Positions 26,301 to 31,301 of a stretch of DNA of 64,000 bases are shown here, piece by piece (position 1 is the first letter of the stretch; each line of letters opens with the position of its first letter). The position numbers and the translations under genes are program-made. The stretch lies in NCBI GenBank assembly GCA_001792465.1, contig MGGO01000031.1, forward strand, positions 1,172 through 65,171, given 5' to 3'. Source of the DNA: Candidatus Woesebacteria bacterium RIFCSPHIGHO2_01_FULL_44_10. Lineage in GTDB: Bacteria > Patescibacteriota > Microgenomatia > UBA8517. The notes beneath the pieces are model-generated. The model saw only the letters and a list, made by a program, of their open reading frames with translations, did no database searches and was not told where the DNA came from.

Positions 26301-26374
26301 AAGTGGACAGGTACCCCTTAAAATGCAAGAAGTTTCTATATAATTAGAAGCTTATTTTAAGGAGGTGATTTATT

Positions 26375-26632
26375 TTGAAACCTGTTATTGCCAAAGAAGT
26401 CAAAGAGGAAATATTGGCTAAAGTTAAGGCCGGTGAACCAGCCGCTTCAGTTGCCCAGAAATTCGGAATCTCGGTCAAAACGATATATGGCTGGTTAAGA
26501 TGGAATACCATTAAAGGAGTAAGTTGGCTAGATTATGCCAAGTTAAAGAGAGAAAATCAGCAACTAAAAGAGATTATTGGGGTATTGTCCCTTGAGGTTG
26601 CAAAGTCAAAAAAAAAGACAGGTAGGGCGTGA
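26375..26632 (+). CDS. IS3 transposase OrfA (HTH)
   Basis: 'VAQKFGISVKTIYGWLR' is the HTH. The leucine-zipper-like 'LKRENQQLKEIIGVL' follows. Confidence 0.7.
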   Translation: MKPVIAKEVKEEILAKVKAGEPAASVAQKFGISVKTIYGWLRWNTIKGVSWLDYAKLKRENQQLKEIIGVLSLEVAKSKKKTGRA

Positions 26633-27449
26633 GCTTGAAGCTAAACTGCCTGGAATCTCCAAACCCCTTATCTCCCGAACTCTTGGGATTGGAGAAAGAA
26701 ATCTTTACAACCAAAATACTAGACAAAAAGAGGCTGATCTGGCCCTAAAAGACCAGATACTCAAGGTTTTGGAACTAAACCCAAGTTATGGTCACAGAAG
26801 AGTCGCTTTAGCCTTGGGGATTGGCAAGAAAAGGACAAGAAGAGTTATGAGGCTGTTTGGTATCAAGCCTTACAAAAGAAAAGCTAGATGGACCAAAAAG
26901 AAGGATTATGGCAATCCACCCTCAGGAATTCCGAACCTTATCAAAGGTTCCTGCCCAGTTAAACCCAATGTTTATTTTGCCGGAGATTTTACAAGGCTAA
27001 TTTGGAATCAAAAGATTATCCATCTGGCCACTTTTATTGATTTATTTACCCGGGAAATTGTGGGCTGGTCAGTTTCCATTAGGCACACATCAGAATTTGT
27101 AATTGAAGCATTTTTAGATGCAGTGAGGAATGCGGGTTTACCTCTAATTGTCCATACCGATCAGGGAAGCGAATACAACTCAAAAGAATACACAAAGTTT
27201 ATGGAAAGCCTGGGAGTTAAGGTAAGTATGTCTGCTAAAGCCAGCCCTTGGGAAAATGGCTACCAAGAATCTTTCTATGACAACTTTAAAACTGATCTAG
27301 GAGCAGAATTTGAAAGGTTTGAGACCATCGGAGAGTTTGTCGAGGCTCTCCATTCAACAATTAACTATTACAACAACCGAAGGATTCACACCAAACTTAA
27401 AACATCTCCTCTCAAATTCAAGCTAGAATTTCTATCCCGTAATATGTAG
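26577..27449 (+). CDS. IS3 transposase OrfB (DDE/rve integrase core). It is expressed as an OrfAB fusion via a -1 frameshift.
   Basis: 'HTDQGSEYNS' marks the DDE region. The C-terminal 'YNNRRIHTKL' matches the conserved IS3 end. Confidence 0.7.
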   Translation: MGYCPLRLQSQKKRQVGRELEAKLPGISKPLISRTLGIGERNLYNQNTRQKEADLALKDQILKVLELNPSYGHRRVALALGIGKKRTRRVMRLFGIKPYKRKARWTKKKDYGNPPSGIPNLIKGSCPVKPNVYFAGDFTRLIWNQKIIHLATFIDLFTREIVGWSVSIRHTSEFVIEAFLDAVRNAGLPLIVHTDQGSEYNSKEYTKFMESLGVKVSMSAKASPWENGYQESFYDNFKTDLGAEFERFETIGEFVEALHSTINYYNNRRIHTKLKTSPLKFKLEFLSRNM

Positions 27450-27473
27450 AAAGTTTTTGCAAAAAAGGGGTAC

Positions 27474-27914
27474 TTGACACACGCGAGTTATCGGGAAAGA
27501 TATAAAGAGTTTTTGAAAATTGACTTTCCTCATATTCCGTATCCAAAAGATAAAAATAGCTTTAAGAAATTGGTTGCATTAGGTACAGAATTACGCTTGC
27601 TACATTTGCTTGAATCTCCGAAAGTAAACCAATTTATAACAACTTATCCTGTTGCTGGATCCAATGTAGTTGAAAAACCAAACTACAAAGATGGCAAAGT
27701 ATTTATTAATGAAAGCCAATATTTCGGAAGTGTTCCAGAAGTTGCATGGAACTTCTGGATTGGCGGTTACCAGCCAGCTCAAAAATGGCTTAAAGACAGA
27801 AAAGACAGAACTCTTACCAATGAAGACATTGAACATTATCAGAAGATGATTGTGGCGTTGGTGGAGACAGAAAGAATTATGAAAGAGATAGACAAAATTC
27901 CAAATGGTTTATAA
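27474..27914 (+). pseudogene. C-terminal fragment of a Type IIG/Type ISP/BREX-PglX-like DNA methyltransferase-restriction protein, truncated by the IS3 insertion
   Basis: 'YFGSVPEVAWNFWIGGYQPAQKWLKDRKDRTLTNEDIEHYQKMIVALVETERIMKEID' is the conserved C-terminal module of MmeI/PglX-like enzymes. The ORF begins inside the IS right end. Confidence 0.5.
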
Positions 27915-27962
27915 GCTGTATGACCTCGCACCGGAAGAAATTGCGATTATGGAGGGTAAAGA

Positions 27963-28970
27963 TTAGTTTCTCTCGGTATATTTATGGTTGTCGCTGAACC
28001 TTTTACAATCTCGACTTGCCTCATCTTTTTTAACCCCTACTTGCATCAGAGGATGAACTAACATCTTTTCTGCGAATTTCCCAAGCTTGACCCCCTGCGT
28101 TTTCGACACTGACTTTGCAAAGCTTATTTTCCCTTGTATTTTGCAGTAGTCATTGGAGGGAATGTATCCTTTCAATGACGCTGTTTCTAAAATTAAATTT
28201 CGTATCTGCTGGATGTGCCCCCTGCCAATTGAAAGCTTTCTGTTAACTGGTATACCTGTGACTTTTTGACTATAGTTTGAAGTTATCACTTTCACCTTTC
28301 GTTTTCTGACTGCATAGCCGTGCTTGACTAGTATTTTGATGATAGGTTCTATTGAGTCGGTAATACTCTTTTTACTGCCTGAAACGGTGATGTCATCAAT
28401 AAAAATGGTAATGTCTAGACCCGCGCTGTCGGCTACGGCTTTTATCTCTCCAAATACGGGTGCGAGTGCAAAGTTGCAAAGCAAAGGACTTGTTGGTGCA
28501 CCCTGGGGCAGTCTGTGTTGAAATGTAGTTAACTTGGTGAGTAGGTTTGCAGTCTTGTACCCGCAGCCAAAATGGTCAATCCACACTTGGTTTATCTGAT
28601 GATAATTCGTGCTGGGAAAACAGTTTTTTATATCGATGACCCCTATACATTCCTTTCCTATATGAATTTTCGCATTTTCGACAATTGACCTACCAGATAT
28701 TCCTCCCGTCATACCATCAGGCAGTCGGCGAATATTTCGATTGAGAATATTTTTAAGTATCCGTTTTTGGAGCGTCTTCAATGGGTGTTGGGGGTTATCT
28801 ATATGCCGCCACTTGTCTGTACCTTTTTTGTGGATATCAAAAGGTTGATAGTAACTACCAGCAGAGGTTGCGATTTTTTGCAACCTATCTCTTTTCGTGC
28901 CCAACAAGTATTCAAGGTATGAAAGCGAAACCAGTGGACGCAATTCTGGGGATTGTTTTTTTGTGCTCAC
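27963..28970 (-). CDS. Retron-type reverse transcriptase
   Basis: 'DIKNCFPS', 'LPQGAPTSPLLCNFAL', 'FIDDITVSG' (an F/YxDD variant) and 'KVTGIPV' (the retron VTG motif). It is collinear with RT-Ec86 over domains 2-7. The size is 335 aa. Confidence 0.7.
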   Translation of the reverse strand: MSTKKQSPELRPLVSLSYLEYLLGTKRDRLQKIATSAGSYYQPFDIHKKGTDKWRHIDNPQHPLKTLQKRILKNILNRNIRRLPDGMTGGISGRSIVENAKIHIGKECIGVIDIKNCFPSTNYHQINQVWIDHFGCGYKTANLLTKLTTFQHRLPQGAPTSPLLCNFALAPVFGEIKAVADSAGLDITIFIDDITVSGSKKSITDSIEPIIKILVKHGYAVRKRKVKVITSNYSQKVTGIPVNRKLSIGRGHIQQIRNLILETASLKGYIPSNDYCKIQGKISFAKSVSKTQGVKLGKFAEKMLVHPLMQVGVKKDEASRDCKRFSDNHKYTERN

Positions 28971-29254
28971 TATTTGTTCTCTAATAAAACATTGAGCAGA
29001 TTTTCGCCTATTTTATCTACACTTTTCTTATCCGAATTTTTAAGAACTTTTTTTTCAGAGGAGAGGAGGACCAGAAGATAAAATGGAACATCCAGCTTTT
29101 TGGCAATTTTTTCCAATACATCAATGCTGGGTGTCCTATCACCTTTCTCTATCCTTGACAAATAGCTATTATCCACGTTGAGAGCCTTAGCAAGGTCTTT
29201 TTGTGTTACACCTTTGGCAGCTCTAATGGTTTTTATTGCTTTTCCGTATTTCAT
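28970..29254 (-). CDS. XRE-family helix-turn-helix protein
   Basis: 'IRAAKGVTQKDLAKALNVDNSYLSRIEKG'. Its stop overlaps the RT start in an ATGA arrangement. Confidence 0.7.
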   Translation of the reverse strand: MKYGKAIKTIRAAKGVTQKDLAKALNVDNSYLSRIEKGDRTPSIDVLEKIAKKLDVPFYLLVLLSSEKKVLKNSDKKSVDKIGENLLNVLLENK

Positions 29255-29316
29255 ATCATCCTTACATAAAAATCTGAGTTTCCTCCGGTTTTTATATAAG
29301 AAATTAAGGATGAAGT

Positions 29317-29511
29317 TTATCGCACTTTCTCCAAAAGTTTCTTACAAATTTTATTAACCGATTCTTTAGCCTTGCGGTGATTTCTCACGCTCAGCGAGTG
29401 GTTAAAATCCTTCAGAGCTTTTTTCAAAAATCGCTCATCTTCTGATCCCAGCACTCCTGACTTAACAAGACTGTTGATAGAATCAACAATTTGTTGAAAT
29501 CGTTTAGCCAT
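29317..29511 (-). CDS. Small basic helical protein (64 aa) of unknown function
   Basis: The ORF has a strong RBS (AAGGAGGTG) 7 nt upstream. It is the first gene of the HTH-RT operon. Confidence 0.4.
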   Translation of the reverse strand: MAKRFQQIVDSINSLVKSGVLGSEDERFLKKALKDFNHSLSVRNHRKAKESVNKICKKLLEKVR

Positions 29512-29519
29512 AATATTTT

Positions 29520-29920
29520 CACCTCCTTAATCTGTAGCTGGCTCCTCTTTAGAAAGAGGACTACGAGTGCCACTCGTCCTCTTTATGAAAGTGTTGGGAT
29601 CTCCTTAATTCTTAAGGTGCCGTTAAGTTAAAGTATCAGCAGGATAGACGCGTGCAACGAAACATTGCATATCACGTTGTCCATTCATGCTCAAATACTC
29701 GCCCCGGCCAAAAAGCAGAGCAAATTATTACTCTGCGACCTTCCTTTCGGAAAATCATCAGTAGCTCGTTTGAGCTGAGCCAGTCGAAACTGACTTGTTA
29801 GGTACGATATGGCGTAAGGTGAAAAATTAATGTGCTAAGGCGGCATCCGCCGTCAGAAAGAATATAACAGCTCGTGTTCACTTTGTCAAATAGTTGTACT
29901 GATAGACAATTTTAGCCTGA
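29520..29920 (-). ncRNA. Candidate structured non-coding RNA (possible retron msr/msd-like region) upstream of the small-ORF/HTH/RT operon
   Basis: About 400 nt without a long ORF. Hairpins are present at 29538-29572 (tcctcttt..aaagaggac-acgag..ctcgt-cctcttt), 29706-29727 (gcagag..ctctgc), 29753-29768 and 29828-29843 (ggcgg..ccgcc). Confidence 0.3.
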
Positions 29921-29921
29921 C

Positions 29922-30716
29922 GTGTTATCATCCAATTACTTCCCTATGACCAATCAAATGGCAGAAAAAATGAATAAATACGGACAAAGAGGAGAGAAGT
30001 ACCGATACATGCCTGGTTCAAAGAAGCCGTTTAGTTTGAGCCGCAGCAAAATTGATCTCTTTTTAGAGTGTCCGCGCTGTTTTTATCTTGACAGAAGGGT
30101 TGGTCTGGGTAGGCCAGGCATGCCAGGCTGGCCTTTGAATAGTGCTGTGGATGAGCTTTTGAAAAAAGAGTTTGATCTGCTTCGAAAAAATGGCGAGGCA
30201 CACGCTATTATGGAAAAGTACAAAATTGACGCTGTTCCCTTTCAACACCCGGATATTGATACCTGGCGAGCAAACTTTACCGGCAGGCGTTTTCTTCACA
30301 AGCCCACCAACCTAGAAGTCTTTGGAGCCGTCGATGATATTTGGGTTAACAGAAAAGGAGAGCTCATTATTGTTGATTACAAAGCAACCTCTACCAGTAA
30401 AGAGATTTCCCTTGACGATGAGTATAAGGAAGGCTACAAAAAACAAATTGAAATTTACCAGTGGATTTACAGGCAAAACGGACACAAGGTGAGTGACACT
30501 GGCTACATAGTATATGCCAATGGGATAAAAGACCGGGACAAGTTTGATGGAATCTTGGAGTTTGAGATGAGCCTTCACCCGCACAAAGGTGATGATTCTT
30601 GGGTTGAGCCAACTATTTACGAAATGAAAAAGTGTCTAGATTCAGACAAAATTCCCGATCCCAATCCAAATTGTGAATTTTGCAAATATCGGGAATTAAT
30701 CAGAAAAGAAGAATGA
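29922..30716 (+). CDS. PD-(D/E)xK nuclease of the Cas4/RecB family with a four-Cys cluster
   Basis: 'VDDIWV...LIIVDYKAT' gives the D..D/EYK core. Cysteines occur at 'CPRCFY' (N-terminal) and 'CEFCKY' (C-terminal). Confidence 0.6.
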   Translation: MLSSNYFPMTNQMAEKMNKYGQRGEKYRYMPGSKKPFSLSRSKIDLFLECPRCFYLDRRVGLGRPGMPGWPLNSAVDELLKKEFDLLRKNGEAHAIMEKYKIDAVPFQHPDIDTWRANFTGRRFLHKPTNLEVFGAVDDIWVNRKGELIIVDYKATSTSKEISLDDEYKEGYKKQIEIYQWIYRQNGHKVSDTGYIVYANGIKDRDKFDGILEFEMSLHPHKGDDSWVEPTIYEMKKCLDSDKIPDPNPNCEFCKYRELIRKEE

Positions 30717-30767
30717 TGAAACAAAATGAGTTAAAATATTTGTTATGTCGGAAATAGACAAGAATAA

Positions 30768-31301
30768 ATGAAAATAAATAAAAACCCTGAAGATAATTAC
30801 AAAATTGAAGAGGCAATTAAATTTTTAGTCCTTTCAGTAGAAAAAACTGGGACAAATCCAAAACCAGTTATAACCCACTCTATTAGGGTTGCTTTTCGAT
30901 TGGATTTCTATGGTTATGGCATGGATGTTATTTTGGCAGCACTCCTTCATGATTTACTTGAGGATACTGTGACTTCTTTAGAAGAAATCGAAGATAAATT
31001 TGGGAAGACGGTTTCGGAGTTGGTATCGGCCAGCACTTTTAACAAAGAAATTGAGGATAAGGAAGAGAGATACAAAACAAGCTTTGATAAAGCTTTGCAA
31101 TCCGGTAGGAATGCTCTGGTAATACGAGCCGCCGACTTACTTGATAATAGTTTCTATTACTCTTTGGTTGACGATCAAAAAGTTTATAATCATTTGCTCG
31201 GAAAGTTATCCTACTTTCTAAAAACAGCCAAAAATAAAATAGGTAAGGAAAAAATATATAAGGATTTGGATGGTAGATTGAAGATACTTAAGAAAAAATG
31301 A
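30768..31301 (+). CDS. HD-domain phosphohydrolase ((p)ppGpp-hydrolase-like)
   Basis: 'HSIRVA' and 'AALLHDLLEDT' are HD motifs. Confidence 0.5.
   Translation: MKINKNPEDNYKIEEAIKFLVLSVEKTGTNPKPVITHSIRVAFRLDFYGYGMDVILAALLHDLLEDTVTSLEEIEDKFGKTVSELVSASTFNKEIEDKEERYKTSFDKALQSGRNALVIRAADLLDNSFYYSLVDDQKVYNHLLGKLSYFLKTAKNKIGKEKIYKDLDGRLKILKKK

Follow-up and report, generated by a model that had tools for sequence, protein, structure and literature searches.

The minus strand between positions 27963 and 29854 of the 64,000-nucleotide (nt) stretch of contig MGGO01000031.1 analyzed here (the window), from Candidatus Woesebacteria bacterium RIFCSPHIGHO2_01_FULL_44_10, most probably holds an intact Type VI retron, an anti-phage system of the abortive-infection type in the Woesebacteria-like genome of a Candidate Phyla Radiation (CPR) bacterium. 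Read 5' to 3' on that strand, a structured leader of ~345 nt is followed by a 64-amino-acid (aa) open reading frame (ORF) for a small protein (SP), by the gene of an XRE-type helix-turn-helix (HTH) protein of 94 aa, and by that of a reverse transcriptase (RT) of 335 aa. In silico support for the assignment comes from family membership, gene content, promoter, covarying RNA structure, sequestration of the ribosome-binding site (RBS) and AUG of SP, and the concerted change of two short repeats. Comparisons drew on 233 RT relatives at E <= 1e-20, for which ~90 loci were retrieved from genomes, metagenomes and assemblies, and the nearest named relatives of the RT belong to CPR bacteria (Saccharibacteria, Paceibacterota, Levybacteria and Woesebacteria). 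The order SP-HTH-RT is the canonical Type VI order, in which four SP clusters (cl2075, cl2760, cl3272 and cl3897) have been described besides a 'Large' lineage (10.64898/2026.04.27.721009). The initial annotation had placed the three ORFs where we find them (RT 27963..28970, HTH 28970..29254 and SP 29317..29511, all on the minus strand), and had supposed that the noncoding RNA and the small ORF might define an unusual variant. Both are instead the expected parts of a Type VI retron, because an SP-HTH-RT operon with an RNA fused to the SP mRNA is the canonical layout described in two preprints (Retron-Vpa2, 2025, 10.1101/2025.10.22.683967; Retron-Sen3, 2026, 10.64898/2026.04.27.721009), and the locus adds another instance to that already described kind.

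The RT (27963..28970, minus strand) carries the RVT_1 domain of Pfam (1.8e-22), and its best PADLOC model was RT_VI (6e-72, 240 bits, model positions 4-276 of 279), followed by RT_III-A at 189 bits; of its 43 PADLOC matches, each of the best 25 is a retron RT type. Retron models of NCBIfam scored 127-158 bits, compared to 27 for the group II intron maturase and 15 for Drt2, and all 12 sequence matches in the PDB were retron RTs, the best being Ec86 (2.4e-26, residues 31-289). The motifs LPQGAPTSP, FIDD and VTG, on which the initial annotation had based its retron call, are present in the translation together with NAKIH, a form of the retron motif NAxxH, and the call itself is borne out by the PADLOC and PDB matches. 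Neither model scores nor PDB matches placed the enzyme with group II introns, diversity-generating retroelements or abortive-infection RTs, a grouping that the initial annotation had named as speaking against a retron, and these identities as well as that of a defense-associated RT were rejected on the PADLOC, NCBIfam and PDB scores. Judged by its sequence matches, the RT is a Type VI retron RT as defined by Mestre et al. 2020. In the PLSDB plasmids, tblastn with the RT gave no match that exceeded 34% identity and no annotated Type VI relative of use.

The Cro/C1-type HTH protein (28970..29254, minus strand, 94 aa) matched HTH_3 of Pfam (6.3e-19) and, along its full length, HTH_VI of PADLOC (4.9e-27, model positions 2-89 of 92), and almost all related loci have its gene directly 5' of that for the RT. 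The joint RT_VI and HTH_VI matches give the type of the HTH-accessory retron architecture that the initial annotation had raised without assigning it. An ATGA overlap, proposed there for the two genes, was not found; the junction reads TAGTG, such that the RT starts at a GTG that shares 1 nt with the HTH stop codon. By analogy with Vpa2 and Sen3, this Type VI accessory would act as an antitoxin or repressor partner of the RT and SP.

Conservation, dN/dS and an AlphaFold2 model describe SP (29317..29511, minus strand, 64 aa) as a small helical protein and a candidate toxin. Homologues were located by tblastn in ~50 related loci, in all of them 5' of the HTH gene and on the same strand, and 34 SP ORFs of ~42-72 aa could be extracted, the majority preceded by a conserved RBS, in addition to an SP-HTH fusion of 182 aa (locus L085). 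The dN/dS was 0.10-0.20 against seven relatives, wherever dS was unsaturated, and by these sequence measures SP is a real conserved gene under purifying selection. Its strong RBS, as first annotated, is a Shine-Dalgarno sequence (SD), AAGGAGGTGA, located 8 nt 5' of the ATG. The AlphaFold2 model is a three-helix bundle (helices 2-17, 23-41 and 45-63; pLDDT 89), for which Foldseek retrieved generic three-helix bundles only and no match in the PDB at E <= 0.001, and SP had no match in Pfam, PADLOC or NCBIfam. It is 100% identical to the hypothetical protein A2630_00640 of a Candidatus Woesebacteria bacterium, and a family search gave 14 close homologues, none carrying a name. In two independent assemblies (L085:866-1414 and L086:857-1405) the SP stop codon is gone and the frame reads through the spacer into HTH, yielding 182 aa, which may represent a natural toxin-antitoxin fusion.

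Transcription of the locus can be traced to a promoter at 29861..29889 (minus strand), in which a -35 TTGACA (29889..29884), a 17-nt spacer and a TG-extended -10 TATATT (29866..29861) give a sigma-70 score of 11/12, the top of the region in a promoter scan. In an alignment of nine close loci the TTGACAA is invariant and the 17-nt spacer and TATATT recur, and in 24 loci the TTGACAA stands 31-39 nt before the start of the RNA model, at 35-38 nt in 21 of them, which places the predicted transcription start at ~29854. Just 5' of the -35 lies an operator-like palindrome, TTGTCTATCAG(T)ACAA (29894..29909). The arms of the corresponding palindromes in relatives change symmetrically (TTGTCT-ATC-AGACAA, ATGTCT-AAC-AGACAT, TGACT-ACC-AGTCA), suggesting a probable, if putative, operator for the HTH protein. 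The palindrome also contains the -35 (TAGACA, 29903..29908) of a divergent promoter on the plus strand (TAGACA-17-TATCAT, score 10/12) that faces a nuclease gene discussed below.

Between SP and the divergent gene, the initial annotation had pointed to ~400 nt of noncoding, structured sequence, and the region 29512..29921 (410 nt) indeed holds no credible ORF. The leader folds far more stably than shuffled sequence, at z = -6.15 over 29255-29921 and -5.95 over 29500-29854, and 0 shuffles were as stable. No curated family covers this RNA: Rfam, searched over 27000-31000 at E <= 10, gave only chance-level hits to rnk_leader and potC. Across nine loci, RNAalifold predicted 87 pairs from the transcription start at 29854 to the HTH ATG, 41 of which show compensatory changes. 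The 5' domain (29709..29854, minus strand), captured in covariance model R1, comprises a GNRA-like hairpin (29851..29839), a 5' inverted repeat and four short stem-loops, the last of which (29736..29715) is followed by U5. Model R1 had a single match in the window and also recognized 16 loci beyond its training set, always 5' of SP-HTH-RT. In the resulting 25-sequence alignment 94.9% of cells were paired, compared to 30-44% in slid controls, and changes on both sides occurred at 28 of 30 pairs; being fitted by the covariance model, this alignment leans to the modeled structure and inflates the pairing figures somewhat, though the margin is still large. The stem-loop at 29715-29736 (minus strand; GCAGAG...CUCUGC and U5) scores as an intrinsic terminator and covaries in 25/25 aligned loci; it could be an attenuator yielding an RNA of ~140 nt, or purely structural.

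Two long-range pairings connect this leader with SP. The 5' inverted repeat (a2-like, UUAGC-CAU-UUUUCACCUU, 29816..29838, minus strand) has its partner in a 3' inverted repeat (a1-like, 29504..29528, minus strand) that overlaps the SP SD (29528..29519) and start codon (29511..29509). In the minimum free energy (MFE) fold of 29854..29500, positions 29838..29816 pair with 29525..29504, that is, with GAGGUGAAAA and AUGGCUAA, the SD and the start codon, and neither SD nor AUG is left unpaired in the MFE or the centroid fold. In more distant loci, long-range pairings were assessed by comparing duplex energies of cognate and non-cognate partners. For the 5' segment and the translation initiation region of SP, 21 loci gave a cognate mean of -15.7 versus a non-cognate mean of -11.3 kcal/mol (permutation p < 1e-4), and two loci with a noncanonical SP RBS (L033 and L072) carry the matching complement in their 5' sequence. 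The second pairing joins IR1 (AAUUAAGGA, 29602..29610, minus strand), the 5' arm of a long-range stem around the SP coding sequence (CDS), to IR2 (UCCUUAAUU, 29302..29310, minus strand), located 7 nt past the SP stop codon; one pair of this stem shows compensatory change in 4 of 9 sequences, and its duplexes in 16 loci averaged -16.4 for cognate versus -11.2 kcal/mol for non-cognate partners (p < 5e-5). The a1/a2-like flanking repeats and the structure conserved in homologous loci that a retron reading required were therefore both found upstream, as the initial annotation had anticipated.

Further along the RNA, a long hairpin at ~29617..29708 (minus strand), present in the MFE fold, varies in sequence and length between conserved flanks, and its position matches the msd stem-loop of Retron-Vpa2 and SL3 of the Type VI retron Sen3. 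By that analogy it is our candidate msd, the putative template for reverse transcription. A riboregulator hairpin follows (GAGGAC...GUCCUC, 29556..29581, minus strand) with an 8-bp stem and compensatory changes. Beyond SP, a conserved 3' hairpin with a U-rich tail (29259..29301, minus strand; alignment columns 611-654), whose stem also carries compensatory changes, covers the HTH RBS (AAGGA, 29263..29259), and may be the 3' end of the hybrid RNA or an attenuator. From the promoter and this terminator-like hairpin we infer the continuity and the ends of the hybrid transcript.

A direct repeat of 5-9 nt links the candidate msd to the riboregulator. Its first copy, CGGCAC (29622..29617, minus strand), lies at the 3' foot of the variable hairpin, the second, UGGCAC (29572..29567, minus strand), sits in the riboregulator loop, and the core shared here is GGCAC. 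Across loci the copies change in concert, with variants found in both copies such as GGUAC (L001), CGACACA (L033 and L072), AGGCAC, and ACGGCACGG (L077). Intramolecular RNA pairing does not explain this concerted change, since the copies of a direct repeat are not complementary to one another; annealing of the cDNA of repeat 1 to repeat 2, as in the Vpa2 model, predicts it. Retron-Vpa2 of Vibrio parahaemolyticus produces a hybrid RNA of ~470 nt that combines msr-msd with the mRNA of a toxic SP whose RBS and AUG are sequestered, and a conserved 7-nt direct repeat occurs once in the msd and again in the loop of a riboregulator (Zhang et al., 10.1101/2025.10.22.683967). The Vpa2 RT, HTH and RNA form a complex, and its multicopy single-stranded DNA (msDNA) cannot be detected before phage recombination proteins activate the system, after which it is needed for SP translation (10.1101/2025.10.22.683967). 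Since sequestration of the RBS and AUG and the paired repeats are the clearest comparative constraint, a Vpa2-type translational switch is favored by these sequence patterns for the present locus.

The likeness to Vpa2 extends over the order of structured RNA, SP, HTH and RT, the placement of msr-msd and SP mRNA on one transcript, the RBS and AUG held in stems, the inverted repeats that tie the 3' end of the RNA, after SP, to the leader, and the short direct repeat that occurs once at the msd and once in the riboregulator loop. In contrast, the predicted RNA is ~580 rather than ~470 nt long, SP, with 64 rather than 55 aa, does not end in an obviously aromatic or hydrophobic segment, the catalytic motif reads FIDD where Vpa2 has YADD, and the host is a CPR bacterium.

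On this model, transcription would start at ~29854 from the sigma-70 promoter at 29889..29861, and the first ~580 nt of the transcript would constitute the hybrid RNA, an msr-msd-like leader joined to the SP mRNA, with the HTH and RT genes after it. In the resting fold, the 5' inverted repeat would lie on the SP SD and AUG and the IR1/IR2 stem would close around the SP CDS, thereby blocking SP translation. As in Retron-Vpa2, the RT, HTH and hybrid RNA would be held in one complex, where HTH would restrain reverse transcription and probably autoregulate through the palindrome at the -35. Upon phage infection, sensed in the model systems by way of recombination proteins or RecBCD inhibition, msDNA copied from the variable hairpin would accumulate, and its 5' part, complementary to repeat 1, would anneal to repeat 2 in the riboregulator loop, freeing the RBS such that SP would be made and the infected cell arrested. 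For msDNA synthesis, SP toxicity, HTH function and the trigger, this proposal borrows from the two model systems, Vpa2 and Sen3.

Sen3 itself offers another way to read the locus. In this Salmonella system ssDNA is constitutive, HTH is the antitoxin and the trigger is inhibition of RecBCD, and the conserved noncoding RNA described for Type VI places a stem-loop just ahead of its 5' inverted repeat, holds the SP RBS in a basal stem and pairs IR1 with IR2 around the SP CDS (Garcia-Rodriguez et al., 10.64898/2026.04.27.721009). Were the present locus to work likewise, ssDNA and SP would both be made constitutively, HTH would neutralize SP post-translationally, phage inhibition of a host nuclease would be the trigger, and the main use of the RNA structure would be as a template and scaffold for the RT. 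The gene order, the short stem-loop immediately 5' to the 5' inverted repeat, an SP RBS in a basal stem and the IR1-IR2 stem bracketing the SP CDS are all found here, as are two further features shared with Sen3 and cl2075, namely a long internal hairpin with variable center and RNA pairing that reaches into SP codons, and the in-frame SP-HTH fusions of L085 and L086 fit a direct protein-protein relation of toxin and antitoxin. However, covarying direct repeats and strongly selected sequestration of SD and AUG point to control at the RNA level, the cl2075 lineage is proteobacterial, and its SP, 79 aa in Sen3 compared to 64 here, has an N-terminal extension and an amphipathic C-terminal helix. 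We therefore consider the Sen3-like mode of constitutive ssDNA and post-translational control somewhat unlikely for this locus, both as to its toxin control and as to an RNA serving chiefly as template and scaffold, and favor the RNA-level switch, with the two modes not being mutually exclusive.

The closest comparison within the CPR is the Levybacteria locus L003, which, from the organism name, we presume is probably the record of the retron Mestre-729. Its RT, HTH and SP are 55%, 61% and 51% identical to those of the window, and promoter, palindrome and RNA domains are held in common; its upstream neighbor, in contrast, is a DUF2779 nuclease rather than the 250-aa Cas4-like protein of the window. 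Retron-Eco1 (Ec86, Type II-A), the nearest RT relative with a solved structure, likewise has an msr-msd with a1/a2 inverted repeats, but its msDNA is abundant and acts as an antitoxin, its effector is nucleoside deoxyribosyltransferase-like, and it has neither an HTH protein nor an effector mRNA fused to the noncoding RNA.

Besides the lean of the R1 alignment toward its model, several points weigh against our interpretation. SP is highly charged and without an obvious C-terminal hydrophobic core of the kind essential in Vpa2, and covariance model R2, built for the 3' RNA domain, matched close relatives only. Vpa2, Eco12 and Sen3 were compared by published description, not by sequence, and the locus itself is known from sequence and in silico analysis alone. 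Sen3 acts post-translationally, such that the Vpa2 mechanism is not universal in Type VI (10.64898/2026.04.27.721009). Finally, as relayed by citation in the same preprint, six Type VI retrons, a Levybacteria one among them, yielded no detectable ssDNA in E. coli, and the census of retrons by Khan et al. 2025 had included Mestre-729 among the systems it tested (cited by 10.64898/2026.04.27.721009); according to the preprints, most Type VI retrons assayed show no msDNA at baseline that could be detected. Because those tested Type VI retrons lacked detectable ssDNA, a negative baseline msDNA gel here would not refute the retron call, and by analogy msDNA of the present locus is probably undetectable at baseline.

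The retron lies beside an IS3 element (~26306..27478, plus strand) with overlapping transposase ORFs (26375..26632 and 26577..27449) and imperfect ends of ~23-25 bp, which were read by eye, an automated repeat search having returned no inverted repeat at the IS3 ends. Between the element and the RT, and convergent with the latter, all that is left of a Type IIG/ISP restriction-modification (RM) gene is the part encoding its C-terminal 146 aa (27474..27914, plus strand; Type_ISP_C 3.9e-40, REase_MTase_IIG of PADLOC 4.8e-53). This remnant starts exactly at the right IS3 end, and the rest of the gene is absent from the window. All eight close relatives with gene calls have an intact RM system convergent with the RT, of type IIG (L084 and L092), type I (L091 and L094) or a type III-like kind (L085, L086, L093 and L095). 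Synteny of the remnant with these RM genes, or with that of a retron-free contig (L088), was rejected for want of similarity at E < 1e-5, and therefore the RM systems differ. The initial annotation had described a decayed defense neighborhood with an IS3 element, an RM or BREX methyltransferase remnant and a Cas4-like nuclease; the IS3 element and the RM remnant are present, but the Cas4-like gene is intact, and nothing in Pfam or PADLOC that matches the RM fragment marks BREX.

Such surroundings might suggest that the retron is itself a decaying, nonfunctional remnant in a degraded defense island, and the adjoining IS3 element and truncated RM gene as well as the GTG start of the RT could be read in this way. 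Yet the three ORFs are full length and collinear with their relatives, the catalytic motifs are intact, and so are the promoter, the RBSs and every conserved RNA element. Other public contigs also carry an SP of 100% identity and an RT that differs only in the residue of its GTG start. We regard decay as highly improbable and rejected it on the grounds that all parts are intact; the IS3 element and the RM remnant are context, outside the retron, which is an ordinary intact defense gene cluster in a defense island.

On its other side the retron is divergently adjoined by a gene for a Cas4-family PD-(D/E)XK nuclease (29946..30716, plus strand; PDDEXK_1 4.9e-13, Cas4 models ~1e-12), which likely starts at ATG 29946, not at GTG 29922, and has its control region in common with the retron. 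A nuclease gene of this kind stands in the same divergent position in 11 of the 12 closest loci with upstream sequence; seven of these neighbors belong to the family of the window, those of L001, L003 and L030 are DUF2779 proteins whose N-terminal domain is Cas4-like, and L094 has a distant Cas4-like protein, whereas the remaining locus, L002, has SmpB instead. Coordinates of such genes in relatives are L001:422-1939, L003:508-2004, L030:1-1008, L084:210-983, L091:2385-3023, L093:2255-2890 and L094:123-791. The same divergent arrangement occurs in two distant RT lineages (L016 and L077), and the divergent promoter (TAGACA within the palindrome, a 16-17-nt spacer and a TG-extended TATNAT) was found in 9 of 10 nuclease-adjacent loci examined; L016 has a promoter-like site and no palindrome, and L002 lacks the divergent promoter.

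These observations raise the possibility of a four-gene unit, in which the divergent nuclease would work together with the retron, for example by turning over basal msDNA or as a guarded host factor, as RecBCD does for Vpa2 and Sen3 in E. coli, and in which it would have been swapped among at least three Cas4-like families, with its position kept and its expression co-regulated through the shared palindrome. The adjacency in close relatives and in the distant L016 and L077, the -35 inside the palindrome in the nuclease-adjacent loci and its absence in the nuclease-free L002 speak for such a unit, and so does the fact that the RM type on the other flank varies while the nuclease stays. On the other hand, the nuclease family has at least 8000 homologues (64-88% identity, mostly from Patescibacteria and named PD-(D/E)XK nuclease), most of them without a retron, and two retron-free genomes with the nuclease hold other cargo upstream, either SNF2/PLD, MmeI-like RM and KAP NTPase genes or a LexA-like gene. 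Among 45 broader Type VI loci the family of the window stood upstream in only 6, and the upstream genes of six more distant loci are no nuclease of such kind. RT and nuclease identities correlate weakly (r = 0.45), the nearest nuclease to that of the window being that of L016, whose RT is 32% identical, and neither the Vpa2 nor the Sen3 preprint mentions a nuclease partner (10.1101/2025.10.22.683967; 10.64898/2026.04.27.721009). We consider a four-gene unit unlikely, both in its partnership and in its co-regulated swapping of nucleases; the nuclease looks like a core gene flanking a defense hot spot, next to a retron of three genes and their hybrid RNA.

The slot beside the nuclease and the genes beyond it vary. 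In L088:1-8008, an SNF2/PLD gene, an MmeI-like RM enzyme and a KAP NTPase fill the slot next to the same nuclease gene, and on two retron-free CPR contigs (L088:8001-10033 and L090:7320-9358) the Cas4-like gene is directly followed by one for a Trypsin_2 protease of ~428 aa, the two forming a conserved module. In the window, an HD-domain-like ORF (30768-31301), not Trypsin_2, comes after the Cas4-like gene. L016 (CAYQNE010000036.1), labeled Gammaproteobacteria, carries a Cas4-like gene 62% identical to the CPR-type gene of the window beside a divergent Type VI retron, reflecting either a mis-binned contig or horizontal transfer.

The locus adds a lineage of the CPR (Patescibacteria) to the recently characterized Type VI retrons, and lends independent comparative support to the fusion of a toxin mRNA with a reverse-transcription template. 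The main additions of this analysis are the comparative support for the msDNA-riboregulator step, with concerted repeats following the pattern expected if the cDNA of one repeat must anneal to the other, a step that the Vpa2 model proposes, and the recurrent Cas4-family neighbor, which could hint at how retrons sense infection in hosts that possibly lack RecBCD.

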